From the sequence record KC109329.1: a DNA stretch of 40,218 nt, one strand, 5' to 3'. The DNA is from Escherichia phage CLB_P1. Numbering within the stretch: position 1 is the first letter of the stretch; every line of letters begins with the position of its first letter. The notes under the pieces are model-generated. The model saw only the letters and a program-made list of their open reading frames with translations, was not told the DNA's origin and ran no database searches. Below, one piece after another: positions 539 through 39,363 of this stretch. Made by a program: the position numbers and the translations under genes.

Positions 539-772
539 ATGATCAACCAAATCAAAACTACTAAATCAAATGTTAACGGCAACGTTTCTCACTTTATCGG
601 TGATAACGAAAGAGGCACACCATACGCCGCCGTAACCGTGCAACCAAATGGCGATTATTGGTTTACCGTGTATGGATCATACTCTTTTGGACGTCCGGCG
701 CATGATAAGATCTTGCAAGCGGTTAAGCCTACAGGGAAGAATATTACAGCAGAAAAGTTTTATAAAAAGTAG
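539..772 (+). CDS. Hypothetical early protein (77 aa), first gene downstream of the host promoter
   Basis: ATG at 539 preceded by GAGGG with 7-nt spacing; the track start at 452 overlaps the -10 box and is unlikely to be used; no recognised motif. Confidence 0.5.
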   Translation: MINQIKTTKSNVNGNVSHFIGDNERGTPYAAVTVQPNGDYWFTVYGSYSFGRPAHDKILQAVKPTGKNITAEKFYKK

Positions 773-852
773 CTTGCTTTGTGCGATCTGTTAACTTATA
801 GCGGCCTGACTGATAGTCACTAACACATACTTAACTTTGAGAGGATATAACT

Positions 853-1341
853 ATGGAACGTAACGCTAACGCATACTATGAGCTGCTGGCTGCAACCGTT
901 GAAGCATTTAACGAGCGTATTCAGTACGACGAAATAGCTGAAGGCGATGACTACCACGATGCGCTGCATGAAGTCGTAGACGGTCAGGTCCCGCACTATT
1001 ACCACGAGATTTTCACGGTGATGGCTGCTGATGGTATAGACCACGAGTTTGAGGACGCTGGGCTGATGCCTGAGACCAAGGACGTAACGCGTATACTGCA
1101 AGCTCGCATCTATGAGGCACTGTATAACGATGTGTCTAATAGCTCGGATGTAGTCTGGTTCGAGGGCGAATACTGGGTGGTTGATGCTGAGACAGGGGCA
1201 ATCATTGAGCAGGAGGGATCACTTGAGGAAGCTATTACATGCGCTAAAAAATTCTATCCGATAGGTCGCCACCTGAAGGTCGAGGACATCAACGATAACG
1301 TAGTGTTCGACCCTGCGGCTGCTGAAGAGGACTGCGAGTGA
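853..1341 (+). CDS. Ocr-like anti-restriction DNA-mimic protein (T7 gp0.3 homolog) with a ~60-aa C-terminal extension
   Basis: Residues 1-100 align with T7 Ocr (YD.I...D.HDA.H...[34 protein letters not shown]); RBS GAGAGGA upstream of ATG. Confidence 0.8.
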
Positions 1342-2477: not shown

Positions 2478-5159
2478 ATGAGCGTCATCTCTATTGACAA
2501 ACACGACTTCTCTGATGTGTCGAACGCCATTGAGCCGTTTAACCTGCTGGCTGACCACTACGGGCAAGACCTTGCAGTCAAACAGCTTCAGCTTGAGCAT
2601 GAGGCATACACTGAAGGCGAGCGACGTTTCATCAAGAACCTTGAGCGCCAGACTGAGCGCGGAGAACTGGCAGACAATCAGGTCGCCAAGCCTTTGATGC
2701 AGACTCTGGTCCCTAAGATTGCGCAAGCCGTCAAGGAGTGGCATGAAGGTCAAGACGGGAAGCTGTCAACCTCTCGTCCGAGCGTAGCGTTCACCATGTT
2801 GAGCACTGAAGAGAAGGCCGTCAAGGACCGCTCTCTGCGCATCTCCTGTGAGTCTGCTGCGGTTATCATACTGAAGGTCATCCTCTCCAAGCTGGTCAAG
2901 CCTGAAGGGATACCGATTACACCTATGGCCTCAGCGATAGGTCGCACACTTGAGGATGAAATCCGATTCGGTCGCATTCGTGACAAGGAGAAGGAGCACT
3001 TCAAGAAGGTGATAGCTGATAACCTGAACAAGAGAGCCGGGGCATCATACAAGAAAGCCTACATGCAAGCGGTCGAGACATCCATGCTGGAGCAGGGTCA
3101 ACTGGAAGATGCGTGGGGAACTTGGAGTCCGACAGAAGCGGTACACGTTGGCATCAAGATGCTTGAGATTGTCATACAGTCCACACAACTGGTCGAGCTT
3201 AAGCGTTACGGTGCTGGCAATGCAGCTGCTGACGTTGAGATGGTCCACCTGTCAGACTTCTGGGTCAAGAAGATGACACAACGTGGGTTCAGCCTTGCGG
3301 GTATTGCGCCAGTCTACCAGCCTTGCGTCGTTCCACCTAAACCGTGGACTGGTGTCGTAGGAGGTGGGTACTGGGCCAAAGGTCGCAGACCACTACCACT
3401 GATTCGCTTAGGGTCTAAGTCTGCGGTGGCGCGTTACGAAGACGTGTACATGCCTGAAGTCTATGACGCTGTGAATATCATCCAGAATACACCTTGGAAA
3501 GTTAACAAGAAGGTACTGGAAGTGGTGAACACGGTCGAGAAGCTGAACAACACGCCTATTGACGACATCCCTCAGATGGAGCCACTGAAGCCTGAAGACT
3601 ATGCGGGTGAGACTGAAGAGGAACTCAAGGCATGGAAGAAGGCTGCTGCTGGTATCTACCGCCGAGAGAAGGCCCGGCAGTCACGCAGATTGTCACTGAG
3701 CTTTATCGTTAACCAAGCGAACAAGTTTTCTCAGTTCAAGGCCATCTGGTTCCCGTACAACATGGACTGGCGCGGTCGCGTCTACGCTGTGCCGATGTTC
3801 AACCCTCAGGGTAACGACATGCAAAAGGGTCTACTGACTCTGGCAGTCGGCAAGCCTATTGGTGCCGATGGATTTAAATGGCTGAAGGTACACGGTGCAA
3901 ACTGTGCGGGTGTCGATAAAGTCACCTTCGAGGAGCGCATCAAGTGGGTGGAAGACAACCACGACAACATCATGGCTGCTGCTAAGGCACCGATGGACAG
4001 CATTGAGTGGTGGGGCAAGTTAGACTCTCCGTTCTGCTTCCTTGCGTTCTGCTTCGAGTATGCTGGCGTAATGCACCACGGATTGTCTTACTCCTGCTCG
4101 CTTCCGATAGCGTTCGATGGGTCCTGCTCTGGGATTCAGCACTTCAGCGCGATGCTTCGTGACCACATCGGTGGACATGCAGTAAACCTGACGCCTTCCG
4201 GTAAGGTCCAAGACATCTACCGCATCGTGTCTGACCGCGTTGAGGAGGAGCTTAAAGTCCTGCTGGTTAACGGCACGGACAACGAGATGGTAACTCACGA
4301 GGACAAGAAAACTGGTGAGATTACCGAACGTCTCAAGCTGGGGACACGAGAGCTGGCCCGGCAGTGGCTGACTTACGGTATGTCACGCAAGGTTACTAAG
4401 CGCTCAGTCATGACTCTGGCCTACGGGTCGAAAGAGTACGGCTTCGCAGACCAAGTTTATGAGGACATCGTGATGCCAGCGATTGACTCAGGGTCTGGCG
4501 CTATGTTCACCGAGCCAAGCCAAGCGTCTCGCTTCATGGCTAAGATGATTTGGGAAGCTGTGAGTGTGACCGTAGTTGCTGCGGTTGACGCGATGAAGTG
4601 GCTTCAAGGTGCTGCCAAGCTGCTGGCTGCTGAAGTGAAGGACAAGAAGACTGGTGAAATCCTGAAGCCTTGCCTTCCGGTACACTGGGTCACGCCTGAT
4701 GGTTTCCCGGTATGGCAGGAATACCGCAAGAAGGATACCACTCGTCTGAACCTGATGTTCTTAGGGTCCTTCAACCTTCAACCTACGGTCAACAAAGGTA
4801 CGAAGAAAGAGCTGGATAAGCACAAGCAGGAGTCAGGCATTAGCCCAAACTTCGTCCACTCACAAGATGGTAGCCACCTACGCAAGACTGTAGTCCACAC
4901 GCATCGCAAGTATGGCGTGATGTCATTCGCAGTGATTCACGATAGCTTCGGGACCATCCCGGCTGACGCTGAATATCTGTTCCGTGGTGTCCGTGAGACG
5001 ATGGTTGAGACATACCGCGACAACGATGTGCTGCTTGACTTCTACGAGCAGTTTGAATGCCAGCTTCATGAGAGCCAGCGCGACAAGTTGCCTGAGCTAC
5101 CGAAGAAAGGTAAACTGAATATCGAAGACATCTTGTCTTCAGATTTTGCATTCGCTTAA
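2478..5159 (+). CDS. Single-subunit DNA-directed RNA polymerase (T7 gene 1 homolog), 893 aa
   Basis: Full-length alignment with T7 RNAP from recall (DFS...PFN.LADHYG, PCVVPPKPWTG, WFPYNMDWRGRVYAV, HGANCAGVDKV, SPFCFLAFCFEYAGV, IHDSFGT, FAFA C-terminus). Confidence 0.97.
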   Translation: MSVISIDKHDFSDVSNAIEPFNLLADHYGQDLAVKQLQLEHEAYTEGERRFIKNLERQTERGELADNQVAKPLMQTLVPKIAQAVKEWHEGQDGKLSTSRPSVAFTMLSTEEKAVKDRSLRISCESAAVIILKVILSKLVKPEGIPITPMASAIGRTLEDEIRFGRIRDKEKEHFKKVIADNLNKRAGASYKKAYMQAVETSMLEQGQLEDAWGTWSPTEAVHVGIKMLEIVIQSTQLVELKRYGAGNAAADVEMVHLSDFWVKKMTQRGFSLAGIAPVYQPCVVPPKPWTGVVGGGYWAKGRRPLPLIRLGSKSAVARYEDVYMPEVYDAVNIIQNTPWKVNKKVLEVVNTVEKLNNTPIDDIPQMEPLKPEDYAGETEEELKAWKKAAAGIYRREKARQSRRLSLSFIVNQANKFSQFKAIWFPYNMDWRGRVYAVPMFNPQGNDMQKGLLTLAVGKPIGADGFKWLKVHGANCAGVDKVTFEERIKWVEDNHDNIMAAAKAPMDSIEWWGKLDSPFCFLAFCFEYAGVMHHGLSYSCSLPIAFDGSCSGIQHFSAMLRDHIGGHAVNLTPSGKVQDIYRIVSDRVEEELKVLLVNGTDNEMVTHEDKKTGEITERLKLGTRELARQWLTYGMSRKVTKRSVMTLAYGSKEYGFADQVYEDIVMPAIDSGSGAMFTEPSQASRFMAKMIWEAVSVTVVAAVDAMKWLQGAAKLLAAEVKDKKTGEILKPCLPVHWVTPDGFPVWQEYRKKDTTRLNLMFLGSFNLQPTVNKGTKKELDKHKQESGISPNFVHSQDGSHLRKTVVHTHRKYGVMSFAVIHDSFGTIPADAEYLFRGVRETMVETYRDNDVLLDFYEQFECQLHESQRDKLPELPKKGKLNIEDILSSDFAFA

Positions 5160-7091: not shown

Positions 7092-7448
7092 ATGAAGGGT
7101 AAGCACTTAGGCTATCGACGCAAGGACGGCTACTGGGTTATAAGCACAACAAAGGGTCAACTCCTTGCTCACAGGGTAGTCTGGGAACTAACTCATGGTC
7201 CGATACCTGAAGGAATGGTGATTGACCATATAAACCGCGACCCTTCTGATAACCGCATTGAGAACTTACGATGTGTAACCCAGGCAGTGAACCTAACAAA
7301 CGTTCCCGTCCGTAGCCACTGCAAGTCTGGTGAGAAGTATGTGAACTTTGAGCCAAGGACTGGTAGATGGCAACTTCGGATAAAGCGTAAGTCATATGGT
7401 ACGTTCGACACCATAGCTGAGGCGGTAGCCTTGAGAGATTCATTATGA
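7092..7448 (+). CDS. HNH homing endonuclease (free-standing)
   Basis: HGPIPEGMVIDHINRDPSDNRIENLRCVTQAVN motif; lies immediately after the ligase gene. Confidence 0.8.
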   Translation: MKGKHLGYRRKDGYWVISTTKGQLLAHRVVWELTHGPIPEGMVIDHINRDPSDNRIENLRCVTQAVNLTNVPVRSHCKSGEKYVNFEPRTGRWQLRIKRKSYGTFDTIAEAVALRDSL

Positions 7449-10653: not shown

Positions 10654-12357
<1,704 letters not shown>

Positions 12358-12401
12358 GCGTGATATAGCTGATTATAAGAATTTTATGGAGGACACCATT
12401 A

Positions 12402-12566
12402 GTGTTAAAGAAACTTAAAGCTCGATACCATCGGTTCATGTACAAATGGTGGAGCGAAGAAGCAACCTGCCTGTCGAACATTCTGGGAGACCAAAGGTTC
12501 GACTCTAAGGCATGGAAGAAAGCTAACCGGAAGTTTATGTATCACTTCTTGCGTACAGACTTCTAG
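12402..12566 (+). CDS. Small hypothetical protein (GTG start, 54 aa)
   Basis: GGAGGA with 8-nt spacing before GTG at 12402; an in-frame ATG at 12438 is an alternative start. Confidence 0.3.
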   Translation: MLKKLKARYHRFMYKWWSEEATCLSNILGDQRFDSKAWKKANRKFMYHFLRTDF

Positions 12567-12567
12567 G

Positions 12568-12614
12568 TCTAGACTCAAGGTCATTCACATTGAGTGGCCT
12601 TTATGATTAGACTA
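12568..12614 (+). promoter_or_regulatory. Conserved stem-loop, candidate RNase III processing site (R4.7-like)
   Basis: AGACTCAAGGTCAT-loop-GTGGCCTTTATGATTA; same stem as at 5483 and 36254 with a different loop. Confidence 0.4.
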
Positions 12615-12629
12615 AACGGAGGATTAACC

Positions 12630-13031
12630 ATGTTTGATTGCATTGAGTGGACCGGGTGTCGAGATAGTTTCGGCTACGGTATGCGAAAGGTCAACGGGAA
12701 GGTCCGTAGACTGCATCTGATAGCCTTCGAGGAGGCGAATGGTCCGATACCAGAGGGAATGGTCGTGAGGCACAAATGCGACAACCCAGCGTGCTACAAT
12801 CCAGAACACTTGGAGCTGGGGACAAGGGCTGAGAACAATCACGATAGAGACATTAGAGGTCGAACCGCTAAAGGCGTGCGACATGGAAGCTCTAAGCTTA
12901 CACCTGAAATAGTACAAGAGGCCAAGGTGCTTTACGCAGGAGGTGGCTGGACTCACCGCTCCTTAGGTAAGAAGTATGGAGTGGGTCACCGCACACTGGC
13001 TAGAGCAATTGGAGGAGAAACATGGACTTAA
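12630..13031 (+). CDS. HNH homing endonuclease (free-standing, between primase/helicase and DNA polymerase)
   Basis: NGPIPEGMVVRHKCDNPACYNPEHLELGTRAENNHD motif; GGAGGA RBS 7 nt before ATG at 12630. Confidence 0.8.
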   Translation: MFDCIEWTGCRDSFGYGMRKVNGKVRRLHLIAFEEANGPIPEGMVVRHKCDNPACYNPEHLELGTRAENNHDRDIRGRTAKGVRHGSSKLTPEIVQEAKVLYAGGGWTHRSLGKKYGVGHRTLARAIGGETWT

Positions 13032-15034
13032 GTAACGTATATGGGTCTGACATCGAGACCAATGGTCTACTTGATACAGTCTCCCAGTTTCACTGTGGGG
13101 TCCTGATTAACGCCGAGTCGAATGAGACCCTTAAGTATGGGGTAGCTCCGATGGTCGGTATCGTCGGTGGCTTCAAAGAGTATGTTCATAAAGTGGAAGA
13201 GATTGCCGCATCTCCTGATGGTATGCTGGTATTCCATAACGGTATCAACTATGACGTCCCGGCTATCGACAAGCTGAAGCGTCTGTACTTTGGTAAACGA
13301 TTTAACTTCCCGAAACACAAGATGATTGATACCTTGGTGCTGGGCCGCTTGATGTATCCAAACATTAAGTTCTCAGACATGGGCGCGGTGAAAGCTGGTC
13401 GTCTGCCACCTAAGATGATGGGGCGCCAGTCTCTTGAGGCTTGGGGCTATCGTCTAGGTGAGATGAAGGGTGAGTACAAACACGATTACGTTGCCAAATG
13501 CAAGGCTGAAGGTATCGAATATAAGGCTGGGGACGAATGGTTGTTCCCGTCTCAGGAGATGCTGGACTATAACGTTCAAGACGTTGTGGTCACACTGGCG
13601 TTGTTCAAGAAGTTCCTGACTGACAAGTATTACTTCCAGTCTGAACAGTTCGCTTTCGACCAGATTTATGCGTTGCGTCTGGAACATGATGCTGCGTGGA
13701 CCTGTGCGAAGATGGAACGTAACGGCTATCCGATGAACACCGAGATGGTCGAAGGCTTATATCGTGAACTCACCGTCAAACGTGCAGAGCTGCTGGACAA
13801 GCTGCGTTCGACTTTCGGTAGCTGGTATGCACCGAAGGGAGGCAAGGAGTTCTTCAAGCACCCACGTACAGGCAAGGACCTTCCTAAGTATCCGCGAGTC
13901 GTGTATCCTAAGGTCGGTGGCATCTTTAAGAAGCCGAAGAACAAAGCTCAACGATTAGGTCTTGAGCCTTGCGAGTTCGACTCACGAGACACGATGGAAG
14001 GAGCGCCATTCACGCCAATAACTTACGTTGAGTTTAATCCGGGAAGCGGAGACCACTTAGCGAAAGTCCTGATGGAGCGTGGCTGGGAACCTGTGGACTT
14101 CACTGACACCGGGAAGCCTGTAGTCGATGACGAGACGTTAGAACACGTTAAGTTACCAGACGAAGAGGCTCAGGCTTGCGTAGAGCTGGTCCGTGAGTAT
14201 CTGGTAGTCCAGAAGCGCATCGGTCAGGCGGCTGAAGGTAAGAACGCATGGTTGAAACTTGTAGGTCCAGACGGACGTATGCACGGTTCAATCAACCCAT
14301 GTGGTGCAGTAACCGGACGTGCGACCCATAGTACACCAAACATGGCTCAGGTCCCGGCTAACGGTGCCCCATACGGTGAGACTTGCCGTGGTGCTTTCGG
14401 TGCAGCGTGGAACAAGAAGGACGGCAAGCCAGACCCTTGGATTCAAGTAGGTGTGGATGCCTCAGGTCTTGAGCTTCGTTGTCTGGGGAACCGAGCGGCT
14501 CCGTTTGATGGTGGTGACTATGCGAAGACTGTAGTCGAAGGTGACATCCACTGGGCAAACGCAGTCAACGCTGGACTAGCACCTAACGTCCCACGCGACA
14601 AGTCTAGCCATGACCATGATGCTTTCCGTAATAACGCTAAGACGTTCATCTATGCGTTCCTGTATGGTGCAGGGGCCGCTAAGATTGGACTGATAGTCGG
14701 AGGTGGTAAGAAGGAGGGTTCAGCTCTCATGAAGAAATTCATTGAGGGTACACCAGCTATCAAGGACCTCAGGGAAGCTGTACAGAACACGCTCATCTCC
14801 GAGTCCAAATGGGTGGACGGTGAGAACATCGTGAAGTGGAAACGTCGCTGGCTGAAAGGTCTGGATGGTAGACGCATTCACATCCGGTCGCCACACTCAG
14901 CACTTAACGCTCTACTTCAGGGTGACGGTGCGGTTGTCTGTAAACACTGGATTGTTGAGACTGAACGTATGCTTGAAGAGGCCGGGTATGTCCACGGCTG
15001 GGAAGGAGACTTTGCGTACATGGCATGGGTGCAT
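13022..15034 (+). CDS. DNA polymerase (T7 gene 5 homolog), exon 1 (codons 1-671; a TAA stop follows in the intron)
   Basis: DIETNGLLD exonuclease motif, YNVQDVVVT, PRTGK.LPKYPR, KVGGIFKKPKNKAQR, GRATH, DASGLELRC, NAKTFIYAFLYGAG, GDFAYMAWVH as in T7 gp5. Confidence 0.95.
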
Positions 15035-15632
15035 TAACATCATGGTGCACATTAAATCTGGTGAACTCGGTGAACTCCTAATGGGACAATACCGAGCCAA
15101 GCCATAGGGAGGATGTATGAGAGGCAAGAAGTTAATTCTTGAGGCCACTGAGACTGGCTGCATAATCCCTACGTCACATAAATTGAATCAGGATGGATAC
15201 TTCCGAAAGAGGACTAACGGTGTCCTTGAGATGTATCATAGAACTGTATGGATTAAAGCTAATGGTCCAATACCTGAAGGTTTCGAAGTAGACCACAAGT
15301 GTCGTAATAGAGCTTGTTGCAACGTCGAACATCTACAAGTATTATACCGGGACTCACACTTAGTCAAGACCAACAAAGAGCGATACGCTGCTAGGAAGCT
15401 AGAAGCACGAGACTACTGGGTAGAGACTGGGTGTACTGGAACGAAGTTAGCCGAAGTATTCAATGTGTCGTTCTCAGCCGCCTGTGGGTGGATTAGAGAG
15501 TGGAAGGCGTAGAGACTATCCGAAAGGAGTAGGGCCGTGGGTGAGATTCCCACGTAACCCGAAGCGCCAGACAGTCACCTCAAAGACTGATGATATAGTC
15601 CGACACTTCCAGTAATGGGAGAATACAGAAAG
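15035..15632 (+). mobile_element. Putative group I intron with embedded HNH homing endonuclease gene, interrupting the DNA polymerase gene
   Basis: Exon ends in U (15034); exon GUGCAU pairs with GUGCAC at 15045-15050 (U-G at the splice site); G at 15632; joining 15034 to 15633 restores the conserved polymerase C-terminus in frame. Confidence 0.65.
15117..15512 (+). CDS. HNH homing endonuclease encoded within the polymerase intervening sequence
   Basis: NGPIPEGFEVDHKCRNRACCNVEHL motif; RBS GGGAGG before ATG; lower GC than flanking sequence by eye. Confidence 0.85.
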   Translation: MRGKKLILEATETGCIIPTSHKLNQDGYFRKRTNGVLEMYHRTVWIKANGPIPEGFEVDHKCRNRACCNVEHLQVLYRDSHLVKTNKERYAARKLEARDYWVETGCTGTKLAEVFNVSFSAACGWIREWKA

Positions 15633-15788
15633 GATGAGTTACAGATTGCTTGTCGTACTCAAGAAATAGCAGAACGTACAGTAGAAATTGCTCAACTTGC
15701 TATGCGTAAGGTGGGTGAGTTCTATAACTTTAAATGTGTCCTTGATACCGAAGGTAAGATTGGACCAACGTGGAAGGAGTGTCACTAA
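15633..15788 (+). CDS. DNA polymerase exon 2 (C-terminal 51 aa: DELQIACRTQEIAE...FKCVLDTEGKIGPTWKECH)
   Basis: Colinear with T7 gp5 C-terminus (DEIQVGCRTEEIAQ...FRCLLDTEGKMGPNWAICH); an in-frame ATG at 15615 could alternatively give a separate 57-aa peptide. Confidence 0.7.
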   Translation, partial: DELQIACRTQEIAERTVEIAQLAMRKVGEFYNFKCVLDTEGKIGPTWKECH

Positions 15789-36351: not shown

Positions 36352-36804
36352 ATGCTCGAATTTCTAAAGAGAGCGGCTCCGTGGTTACTCGCAGCAGTGA
36401 TGTTTGCTGGGGGCTACCACACCGCTAACAATAAGTGGGAGGCTAAGGTCAATGCAGAATACACCTCGAATCTTAAGGCATCGGAGGATACAAGGCTTGC
36501 TGTCCAAGCTGAAGTCAACAAAGTGTCCAAACGGTTTCAGGACGAAATGTCCTCGCTGGAAGGCAGCACTGATAGGATTATTGCTGACCTTCAGTCTGAC
36601 AATAAGCGGTTGCGCATCCGAGTCAAACCTACGAGTGGAACCACGCAAAGTGACGGTCGATGCGTCATTGATGGTTACGCCGAACTTGACGAACGAGATG
36701 CTAAACGTCTTATCGCCATCGGACTGAAAGGGGACTCTTGGATTAAAGCACTACAGGATACTATTCGAAAACTTCAACAAGACAAGGAGAAAGACAATGG
36801 GTAA
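36352..36804 (+). CDS. Rz-like i-spanin (T7 gene 18.5 homolog)
   Basis: MLEFL, EGSTDRII.DL.SDNKRLR.RVK, DGRAELD.RDAKR, GD.WI.ALQDTIR.LQ as in T7 gp18.5. Confidence 0.88.
   Translation: MLEFLKRAAPWLLAAVMFAGGYHTANNKWEAKVNAEYTSNLKASEDTRLAVQAEVNKVSKRFQDEMSSLEGSTDRIIADLQSDNKRLRIRVKPTSGTTQSDGRCVIDGYAELDERDAKRLIAIGLKGDSWIKALQDTIRKLQQDKEKDNG
36452..36727 (+). CDS. Rz1-like o-spanin lipoprotein embedded in the +1 frame of the Rz-like gene (gene 18.7 homolog)
   Basis: PRWK.ALIGL.L....TISGCASES (lipobox ISGC) and SLMV.PNLT.EMLNV as in T7 gp18.7; start ATG at 36452 inferred. Confidence 0.65.
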   Translation: MQNTPRILRHRRIQGLLSKLKSTKCPNGFRTKCPRWKAALIGLLLTFSLTISGCASESNLRVEPRKVTVDASLMVTPNLTNEMLNVLSPSD

Positions 36805-37588
36805 TATTATTACTTTGAAAACTGACGTAGTTTGGCATTTTGCTACTGGTACACCCTCTGGACTGAAGAACGCATCCGGTCACTTGTTATCTGGTACAAT
36901 ATACGTGAAAGTCCCAGCTAACGCCGAGTCTACAAGGATTACACTAAGCGACGGTACGTCTGCTACTGGTAATTTCTCCGATGGTGGCGGCTGGCCTCTA
37001 CAATCAGGCAGTGTACGTCTGGAAGTGGTTGGTAACACAGAAGACGACTTCCTTATTCTTAAAGTCACCAAGCTGAATGACAGTGGCGTCGGACTTGTTA
37101 AGGTAGAGTATACTTATCGGGAGTCACGTCCTGTATCCCACGCTGAGTATTCTCTGGATACCTTCAACTGGTCAGGAACCCAAGTGTGTGCGGCTGGTCA
37201 GTTCACTAACCTAATGACTCTACCTTTAGTGAAGGGAGTGGATAGCGGCGTCGTTACTATCTCCGAAGGAAAGATGCTGTTCCCAGCTAAAGAGGGACTC
37301 AGTAGTGTAAACTTCGTCGTTCGGTTCGCTGGTGAGTTCCCTACAGCCTCAGCTCATAAGTGGCGATTGCAGCTTCGTAGACCAGATAACACTACCCTAT
37401 CTTCCGTGACGGACACAGATGACCAGCAGTCATTCACCATTCGTGAGGCAGCCATCCATAGCTACATAGCTAATACAGACGACCCGTTCGTTACTACTGG
37501 CATCATGCTTGGCATTGAAGTTACCGGGTCTGAGGACCTTACTCTGTCCTCCCTGACTGTTCGCGTTGACTGCATCTTTAACTCTTAA
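36797..37588 (+). CDS. Hypothetical protein of unknown function (263 aa) between the spanin genes and terminase large subunit
   Basis: ATG overlaps the spanin stop (ATGGGTAA); long uninterrupted ORF with genome-typical composition; no recognised motif and no T7 counterpart at this position. Confidence 0.6.
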
Positions 37589-37599
37589 GAGGTGAAGCA

Positions 37600-39363
37600 T
37601 TGAGTAAAGACTTAGTGGCGCGTCAGGCGCTAATGACTGCACGTATGAAGGCAGACTTCGTGTTCTTCCTGTTCGTCCTGTGGAAAGCTCTGTCACTCCC
37701 AGTCCCGACTCGCTGTCAGATTGACATGGCGAAGAAACTATCGGCTGGGGACAACAGGCGCTTCATCCTACAGGCGTTCCGTGGTATAGGGAAGTCCTTC
37801 ATTACGTGTGCCTTCGTTGTCTGGAAGCTATGGAACAACCCAGACTTGAAGTTCATGATTGTGTCTGCCTCAAAGGAACGAGCCGATGCTAACTCCATCT
37901 TCATCAAGCGTATCATCGACCTCATGCCTCAGCTTCGGGAACTCAAACCTAAGCAGGGACAGCGAGATGCGGTTATCAGCTTCGACGTTGGACCAGCCAA
38001 GCCAGACCACTCACCTTCGGTTAAGTCAGTTGGTATCACAGGTCAGTTGACTGGTAGTCGTGCTGACATCTTGATTGCCGATGACGTAGAGGTTCCGAAC
38101 AACTCAGCGACTCAGGCTGCACGAGACCGTCTGTCAGAGCTTGTGAAAGAGTTCGACGCTATCCTGAAGCCGGGAGGTACAATCATCTATCTGGGTACTC
38201 CTCAGAACGAGATGACCTTGTATCGTGAGCTGGAAGGCCGTGGGTACACCACTACTATCTGGCCTGCTCGTTATCCACGCGACAGGAAGGACTGGCAGTC
38301 TTACGGCGACCGTCTGGCACCGATGCTTCAGGCAGAGCTTGAAGAGGACCCTGAGGCCTTCTACTGGCGTCCGACCGATGAAGTTCGCTTCGACGATACT
38401 GACCTGAAGGAACGTGAGCTGTCCTATGGTAAAGCTGGCTTCGCTCTACAGTTCATGCTTAACCCGAACCTGAGTGATGCCGAGAAGTACCCTCTGAAGC
38501 TCCGTGACCTTATCGTAGCAGACTTGGACCCAGCATCCAGCCCAATGGTCTACCAATGGTTGCCTAACCCTCAGAACAAGCGTGAGGACGTTCCTAACGT
38601 TGGACTCATGGGCGACTCATACCACACGTACCAGACTGTAGGTTCTGCCTTCAGTTCGTACACCCAGAAGATTCTGGTCATTGACCCTAGCGGTCGTGGT
38701 AAGGATGAAACTGGTTATGCGGTACTGTATCAGCTCAACGGCTACATCTTCGCTATGGAAGTCGGAGGTATGCGTGGTGGTTATGAAGACTCTACTCTGG
38801 AAGCGCTAGCTAAGATTGGTCGTAAGTGGAAGGTCAACGAATACGTCATTGAGGGTAACTTCGGTGATGGTATGTACCTTGAGCTATTCAAGCCTGTAGC
38901 GGCCCGTATCCATCCTGCGGCTGTAACTGAAGTGAAGAGTAAGGGTCAGAAAGAACTCCGCATCTGTGACGTTCTGGAGCCTATCATGGGGTCTCACAGA
39001 CTTATCGTCAACGCTGCTGCTATCGTCCAAGACTATCAGACAGCCGCTGATAAGGATGGTGTTCGTAACCCTATCTACTCTCTCTTCTACCAGATGACAC
39101 GTATCTCTCGTGAACGCGGAGCCTTGGCACACGATGACCGACTTGATGCGCTGGCTATCGGTGTACAGTTCTTCGTTGAGTCTATGGCTAAGGATGCCAA
39201 CAAAGGCGAACGTGAAGTCACTGAGGAGTGGCTGGAGGAACAGATGGAGAACCCACGGAAAGGCTTCGAGTCCATCCACACTGAGTTCTGGGACAATGGG
39301 GTCCGGGTAACTCACAATACGGACGACGAGCTGGGACTAGGGGCTTACGTTACGTTCCACTAG
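37600..39363 (+). CDS. Terminase large subunit (T7 gene 19 homolog), probable TTG start
   Basis: Walker A-like [16 protein letters not shown], nuclease-domain region; 587 aa like T7 gp19; GAGGTGA RBS 5 nt before TTG at 37600, no RBS before the first in-frame ATG. Confidence 0.93.

Follow-up and report, generated by a model that had tools for sequence, protein, structure and literature searches.

The DNA studied here, which we call the window, is a stretch of 40,218 nt from Escherichia phage CLB_P1 (CLBP1, record KC109329.1). The GenBank record of Kayfunavirus CLBP1, OZ035730.1, is 100% identical to it in the 1-kb stretch around the HNH gene and has no annotation. The genes of the window are arranged as in a T7-like phage: RNA polymerase, ligase, ssDNA-binding protein, endonuclease I, lysozyme, primase/helicase and DNA polymerase. 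The primase/helicase is found in positions 10657..12357 and the first exon of the DNA polymerase in 13022..15034 on the plus strand. Between them there are three features, also on the plus strand: a conserved small ORF of 54 aa (12402..12566; PHROG 13039, function unknown), a conserved imperfect hairpin (12566..12613) and an intact ORF of 133 aa which codes for an HNH endonuclease (12630..13031, stop included). The initial annotation, made from the sequence alone, had placed a free-standing HNH endonuclease wedged between primase/helicase and DNA polymerase. Its coordinates are exact and so is the position, except that the small ORF and the hairpin intervene on the primase/helicase side.

The small ORF is annotated as a CDS of 165 nt in P7124, EPr2, CR44b and UKE1; it is outside the mobile unit which is described below. 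The hairpin lies just 5' of the Shine-Dalgarno sequence (SD) of the HNH ORF, with a minimum free energy of -22.6 kcal/mol and a z-score of only -2.2. It is present in all relatives, carriers and non-carriers of the HNH gene alike, and thus belongs to the flank; possibly it resembles a processing site for RNase III of the T7 type. Its 3' half was used as an exact anchor of 22 nt, which is matched in 16 IMG/VR contigs. A peculiarity of this neighbourhood is found at about 12290..12400, in the 3' end of the primase/helicase and the spacer which follows: pairwise identity falls there to 54-72% among relatives which are otherwise 95% identical, probably as a result of indels in the spacer after gene 4.

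The HNH ORF has clear translation signals: an SD GGAGG in 12618-12622, a spacer of 7 nt, an ATG in 12630 and a TAA stop in 13029-13031. The ATG of the DNA polymerase is found in 13022, so that both ORFs overlap by 10 nt (ATGGACTTAA), an overlap already noticed in the initial annotation; the two peptide strings which it quoted are also present in the ORF. A longer version starting with GTG in 12594, given in a mechanical list of ORFs, was rejected: the upstream extension is not conserved, and the start is unsupported because the largest Met-initiated ORF in EPr2 and Bas105 begins at the equivalent of ATG 12630 and has 133 aa. An antisense ORF in 12624..12956 was also discarded, as it has no support. 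The HNH ORF is separate and has its own stop, and the reading frame of the polymerase restarts in 13022: the gene is free-standing, outside any intron or intein. No intron match was found in Rfam for the region 12300-13100, and at gathering thresholds there were no Rfam matches in the whole window.

The protein belongs to the Pfam family HNH_3 (PF13392) with a score of 63.4 bits versus a cut-off of 24.8 (E=1.5e-17, residues 27-70), and it matches the PHROG families of HNH endonucleases at about 1e-29. The AlphaFold2 model has a pLDDT of 92.7 and shows an N-terminal beta-hairpin, a beta-beta-alpha finger (strands 45-48 and 61-64, helix 66-75, all with pLDDT above 90), a basic linker and three helices (92-103, 109-116 and 120-127). 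On this prediction the plus strand would code for a nuclease domain in aa 1-75, formed by the hairpin and a beta-beta-alpha-metal finger (12630..12854), followed by the linker in aa 76-91 (RGRTAKGVRHGSSKLT; 12855..12902), where pLDDT is lower (83-88), and by a three-helix HTH DNA-binding domain in aa 92-127 (12903..13010). The C-terminal tail had been described as HTH-like in the initial annotation. The predicted helices agree with that description, and so do the Foldseek comparison, in which this domain matches many HTH domains, the profile matches to HTH proteins including I-HmuI, and the CR44b record, which annotates an HTH in aa 107-128; Pfam HTH_7 is also present in one homologue (P0024). 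Of the 266 homologues found most are aligned over 97-99% of the query: both domains, and their arrangement, are conserved. In an alignment of 59 homologues the residues C4, H48, C50, C55, H60, L61, N69 and D72 are invariant. The general-base histidine (H48) and the metal-ligand asparagine (N69) are kept in the predicted fold. The reading of this protein as an HNH (His-Me finger) nuclease joined to an HTH DNA-binding domain is thus supported by prediction.

A direct search of the protein sequence against PDB found nothing, and a query with the 50-aa core gave only chance matches. The best Foldseek match is I-HmuI (PDB 1U3E; 1u3e_M, probability 0.98, 144 columns), and a profile match extends across both domains (14-131 versus 36-160, E=0.0035). 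I-HmuI is the HNH endonuclease of 174 aa encoded in the DNA-polymerase intron of phage SPO1 and known for nicking. Both proteins share the HNH finger, the linker, the C-terminal HTH, an elongated monomer-type organization and a link to a phage DNA polymerase gene. They differ in several ways: identity is 15%, I-HmuI is encoded in an intron and it does not have the Cys/His zinc pattern. Furthermore the Asp-His pair of I-HmuI corresponds to Arg47-His48, so that catalytic details may differ, because the metal-ligand Asp is replaced by Arg in the subfamily studied here. We have rejected its filing as an intron endonuclease of the I-HmuI type: the gene is free-standing and the likeness is one of architecture.

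I-PpoI occupies ranks 2-5 in Foldseek. The core VVRHKCDNPACYNPEHLELGTRAENN aligns with it without gaps: H48, C50, C55, H60 and N69 correspond to H98, C100, C105, H110 and N119, with an I-PpoI sequence which is consistent with the coordinates of the PDB match. In I-PpoI these residues are the general-base histidine, three zinc ligands and the metal-binding asparagine. The His-Cys box family (PF05551, zf-His_Me_endon) gives a score of 22.7 versus a cut-off of 27, with an identical core spacing H-x-C-x4-C-x4-H-x8-N. I-PpoI is different in other respects: it is a dimeric enzyme from a nuclear rDNA intron and has no HTH.

The closest relatives are found in other phages. Gene 7.7B of CR44b (CDM21552.1) is an orthologue which is annotated in its record as a predicted homing endonuclease; other orthologues are present in EPr2, UKE1, ST17, CHX131, phiYIO1-1, Bas105, BDX03P1 and T147P5. 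All these orthologues have 82-96% aa identity, the same site and the same overlap with gene 5, with no difference of substance. At a larger distance there are the gp7.7-type proteins of the T7 group (gp7.7 of phage 13a, the homing endonuclease of Dickeya phages Katbat and Dagda), in the same virus subfamily. They show 44-50% identity over 97-99% of the length and have the same HNH and HTH domains. However their genes sit elsewhere, for instance between 7.3 and 8 or beside genes for tail or internal virion proteins, so that the gene in CLBP1 is a different insertion. We have not considered it an orthologue of T7 gene 7.7: it lies between genes 4 and 5, and with an identity of only 44-50% the nearest gp7.7 is a relative at the level of a paralogue.

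This genome has two other HNH genes. Gene A (7092..7448, 118 aa) lies directly after the DNA ligase, belongs to HNH_3 and has its best match in PHROG 99. Gene C (15117..15512, 131 aa) has HNH_3 and an HTH-like region, and it is found inside a group I intron of 598 nt (15035..15632, RF00028). The match of the intron covers the full model and appears only in a permissive search: its 35.7 bits (E=2.8e-7) do not reach the gathering score of 50. The polymerase is thus join(13022..15034, 15633..15788), split between VH and DE in motif C. We will call B the gene in 12630..13031. The initial annotation had assigned the three genes to a single family at different loci, and all of them are indeed HNH_3. 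They are related at the domain level only: B and C have 49% identity over 49 core aa, A and B 27%, and the best PHROG family is different for each one. Each gene has its own orthologues, with at least 87-95% identity, in different subsets of relatives. Gene A is 72% identical to gene 1.45 of phiYeO3-12 and is found in only about 11 close relatives, including phages without B (PE3-1, JSS1 and PH1061); it is absent at that position in P7124. The ORF of the intron (C) has orthologues of at least 95% identity in 13 phage records. A recent duplication within the genome was rejected, since pairwise identities are too low and the distributions are independent. Repeated invasion or intragenomic spread had both been suggested initially. 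The separate sets of orthologues speak for invasion, whereas the low pairwise identity speaks against spread: because A, B and C are distant and present in different relatives, independent invasions are favoured over copying within the genome. As judged from these sequences, a repeated and independent invasion of this genome by HNH genes is supported.

The 1-kb stretch around the HNH gene is matched by 218 phage records, nearly all of them K1F-like Autographiviridae. Twelve of them cover the gene, always at the same site, while the next 28 records listed match both flanks over about 609 bp and not over 1001 bp. With tblastn the same 12 records appear at 82% identity or more; the following matches, at 50% or less, are gp7.7-type HNH genes at other loci and in unrelated phages. 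The comparison of insertion sites across relatives, proposed in the initial annotation, thus shows one fixed site with a polymorphism of presence and absence. The low proportion of carriers bears on another possibility, namely that this is a conserved core gene, an accessory gene of replication or an HNH protein associated with the terminase, as found in HK97-like phages. Its location in the replication module, directly 5' of the polymerase and in translational overlap with it, is what could be expected of such a gene. Nevertheless it is absent from about 95% of the close relatives, whose polymerase genes are intact, the terminase gene (37600..39363) is far away and there are sequenced phage genomes with alleles which lack the gene. 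We consider this possibility hardly conceivable; to judge from the available genomes the gene is optional, not core.

The organization of the site becomes apparent when carriers and naive loci are compared. From GenBank and IMG/VR we have assembled 11 loci with the gene and 16 naive ones. Naive loci have the sequence SD-ATG[T/A]TTGAC[C]TTAAG..ATCTGGGGT-TCTGACATCGAGACC, which is translated as M[F/I]DL[K/Q][S/N]IWG-SDIET; the polymerase start of the P7124 or K1F type is ATGTTTGACCTTAAGAGTATCTGGGGT. In all carriers the old SD of the polymerase and ATG[T/A]TTGA serve as the start of the HNH ORF. The cassette interrupts the ancestral ORF of the DNA polymerase (gene 5) after nucleotide 8-9, and it makes carriers longer than naive loci by a net 389 bp. 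The captured translation-initiation region is found in 12618..12637 (plus strand) and contains the SD GGAGG, the 7-nt spacer and ATGTTTGA: in non-carriers this stretch is the polymerase SD with the first 8 nt of the polymerase ORF, in CLBP1 it starts the HNH ORF. At the other end the last HNH codons (..G G E T W T-stop) contain a replacement SD (GGAGGAG) and ATG for the polymerase in 13011..13024 (plus strand). The sequence there is GGAGGAG-N4-ATGGACTTAAGTAACGTATATGGG, from which the polymerase starts again as MDLSNVYG-SDIET. As a result the N-terminus is recoded from MFDLKSIWG to MDLSNVYG: codons 2-8, in 13025..13045 (plus strand), give DLSNVYG versus FDLKSIWG and form the proposed immunity or target region. 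The sequence shared with naive polymerases begins with TCTGACATCGAGACC in 13046..13060 (plus strand). It codes for SDIET, the Exo I motif, and bounds the cassette by homology on the right-hand side. Since the 3' end of the cassette supplies a new SD, an ATG and seven recoded codons, a carrier still makes its essential polymerase.

The logic of the junctions is identical in the 11 carrier and 16 naive loci, across two backgrounds of the upstream sequence. These upstream alleles, type I (..GGAGGATTAACCATGTTTGA) and type II (..TAGGAGACATTATGATTGAC), are each found with and without the HNH gene, and the HNH ORF agrees in its first 8-9 nt with the local upstream allele, either type I or type II. 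Fixed differences between carriers and naive loci are found in 9 sites, all of them in the 30 nt upstream of TCTGACATC (11 carrier versus 15-16 naive loci). No further fixed differences or co-conversion tracts appear in the next 800 nt of the polymerase, nor in 500 nt leftward. Since the fixed differences and the layout of the junctions are limited to this stretch, the mobile unit is the HNH ORF together with the recoded start of the polymerase. For this locus we found no description of a gene which captures the SD and ATG of the downstream gene and replaces its N-terminal codons. The initial annotation missed that the gene lies inside the ancestral polymerase start and does not merely adjoin it, as well as the alleles with a "scar" and no HNH gene, and the annotation available in CR44b.

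The alleles with a scar were detected with a query of 60 nt across the recoded start. Besides the carriers it retrieves three more records, Milel, Bia and TM1, which keep the recoded start and do not have the HNH gene. In all three ATGGACTTAAGTAACGTATA[C/T]GGG is joined directly to the old SD. The allele of Milel (OX460914.1, positions 2490..2530 of locus L028) reads ..GGAGGATTAACC followed directly by ATGGACTTAAGTAACGTATACGGG, that of TM1 (MT808983.1, positions 2488..2530 of locus L029) reads ..GGAGGATTAAC followed by ATGGACTTAAGTAACGTATATGGG. The junctions differ by 1 nt, since TTAACC precedes ATG in one case and TTAAC in the other. This difference fits crossovers at different points, one in ATG and another in AAC, between the two SD-ATG regions which a carrier has. 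It suggests that the gene was precisely deleted twice, independently. In principle these alleles could be ancestral instead; in that case there would be no explanation for the fact that the HNH gene follows, in its first 8-9 nt, the local naive polymerase start in both backgrounds. We also looked for the carrier parent of Milel and TM1 by flank identity: the flanks are too mosaic to point to a single one.

The history of the HNH gene is different from that of its surroundings. Neighbour-joining trees were built for both flanks, with 1500 nt on the left and 1350 nt on the right. Carriers are interleaved with non-carriers in the two trees, and for several carriers the nearest neighbour in the tree is a non-carrier. 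The HNH copies form four allele groups, with dS values from 0.02 to saturated, while the adjacent polymerase has a dS of 0.12-0.31 in every pair. When identity is followed in sliding steps, the ORF stands out as an island with sharp limits: 98-100% within allele groups, 61-82% between groups and 91-98% in the flanks. A metagenomic phage, with primase and polymerase only 79-82% identical to the window, also has an HNH gene at the same site, with a polymerase which starts as MDLNNIYG. This HNH gene has about 70% identity with every Kayfunavirus allele, a distance hardly greater than that between Bas105 and CLBP1. The diverged alleles, the flat dS of the polymerase and the use of the same site in a phage of 79-82% identity indicate that the occupation of the site is old and that alleles have moved among backbones. 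The history of the gene is thus decoupled from that of its flanks, as in a horizontal movement. The same metagenomic phage has a further HNH_3 ORF (121 aa, positions 748..1113 of locus L030) which overlaps the start of the primase/helicase; it appears to be a second homing-endonuclease gene (HEG) placed against the start of a gene essential for replication.

The gene is also well preserved. Its dN/dS is 0.03-0.17 among 10 orthologues, which points to purifying selection at the sequence level, and all 11 copies are intact and full-length. We have therefore considered as very improbable that an old invasion has left here a decaying and inactive remnant, or that the protein is an HTH DNA-binding protein with a dead nuclease. 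It is true that many fixed homing endonuclease genes degenerate, and that phiYIO1-1 has an in-frame duplication of 11 aa in its HTH; however none of the 11 copies is shortened, the catalytic and zinc residues are invariant and dN/dS is far below 1. The duplication just mentioned is a peculiarity of gp23 of phiYIO1-1 (positions 2821..3255 of locus L023): 33 nt within the HTH recognition region are repeated in tandem (GEKYGVGHRTI twice). Such a variant may be inactive or have a changed specificity.

Very probably, then, the ORF is a free-standing HNH homing-endonuclease gene of the gp7.7-like family, with the architecture of I-HmuI, carried on a mobile cassette which homes to the naive start of the polymerase gene. 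Both homing and its cleavage target are proposed here from the way in which phage HNH homing endonucleases work. By analogy, in a mixed infection the monomeric enzyme would bind the naive polymerase gene at its 5' end, over an extended and asymmetric site. The putative target would lie around ATG[T/A]TTGAC-[C]TTAAG..ATCTGGGGT, where the hyphen marks the division within the site, just upstream of the Exo I motif, as suggested by the position of the cassette and by the differences linked to it. The naive allele would be nicked or cut, and recombinational repair from the carrier genome would copy the cassette. We propose that immunity of the carrier has two sources, a site split by the insertion and 9 recoded positions; we infer that carrier and emptied alleles would both be resistant to the enzyme.

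Two observations speak against homing: long co-conversion tracts are not seen outside the cassette, and mosaic flanks could also arise by ordinary recombination. A different possibility is a homing endonuclease with its target elsewhere, for instance at the intron site in motif C of the polymerase. There, between VH and DE, a group I intron interrupts the same polymerase, and the HNH gene inside it has a related architecture. Moreover free-standing phage HEGs can cut away from their own gene; a free-standing enzyme of T3 reportedly cuts at an intron insertion site. On the other hand the cassette has linked sequence only where the polymerase begins, at its 5' end. Most carriers of B are intron-less (CR44b, EPr2, UKE1, ST17 and phiYIO1-1, with polymerase CDSs of 2169-2184 nt), while CLBP1 and CHX131 have the intron: the cassette is independent of intron status, which counts against a target in motif C. 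We find a target of this kind improbable.

A gene which benefits the phage would also be expected to show strong purifying selection and allele lineages of great age. The nuclease might have been kept in order to cut the DNA of co-infecting relatives, by marker exclusion or interference competition, or else the DNA of the host, so that homing would be secondary. Marker exclusion and interference competition have been described for endonucleases of the I-HmuI type and for other endonucleases of phage introns. The low dN/dS across alleles with saturated synonymous sites agrees with a benefit of this kind, as does the persistence of several deeply diverged alleles at one site in genomes which are otherwise 94-97% identical. 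Nevertheless only about 5% of the relatives carry the gene, and its precise losses are viable. A benefit for the phage is compatible with homing, since one cleavage event would do both; as the main reason for the presence of the gene we consider it unlikely, although less so than a target in motif C. A homing cassette directed to the naive polymerase start is the reading which we keep.

Similar genes have been described in other phages. The Seg and Mob proteins of T4, such as MobE, are encoded by free-standing HEGs which spread by "intronless homing" (PMC2790892). Hafnia phage Ca, a Kayfunavirus, has an HEG of 397 bp between the lysis and terminase genes, and genomes with and without this fragment are found in one stock (PMC8861465). 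Like the gene studied here they are optional, intergenic or overlapping genes beside a conserved essential gene, present in some close relatives and absent in others, and their start and stop codons overlap the neighbours. The cassette in CLBP1 differs from them in that it captures the SD and ATG of the downstream gene and replaces its N-terminal codons. In the slot where Hafnia phage Ca has its HNH gene of 397 bp (PMC8861465), between an Rz-like lysis gene and the large terminase, the window has an ORF of 263 aa and unknown function (36797..37588; PHROG 17779, E=2e-22). In the searched literature we found no experimental work on cleavage, nicking or biased inheritance for the HNH protein or its orthologues.

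In part these results are already known: the orthologue in CR44b is annotated as a homing endonuclease and free-standing HNH endonucleases are common in T7-like phages, so that the general picture changes little. What is added are the capture of the start codon, the emptied alleles and the old allele lineages, a tidy set of details which will not surprise a specialist. The locus offers a clean comparative example, with naive, occupied and secondarily emptied alleles, the last presumably resistant, and it shows how a selfish gene can enter the very start of an essential gene without harm. For phage engineering and therapy genomics the ORF may be flagged, from its distribution in the sequenced genomes, as dispensable, and in mixed infections recombination near gene 5 may be biased by it. 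Finally it is possible, although we rather doubt it, that the cassette is more than a passive selfish gene: with the captured ribosome-binding site and start codon, and with a replacement start inside its last codons, it would couple the translation of the essential polymerase to itself, its anciently diverged alleles, which persist at one site in nearly identical genomes, might have different specificities and act in a competition among co-infecting Kayfunavirus phages, and the emptied alleles would be escape variants. If this were true, the locus would be a compact natural system in which the naive, occupied and lost or resistant stages of the homing-endonuclease cycle are all found.
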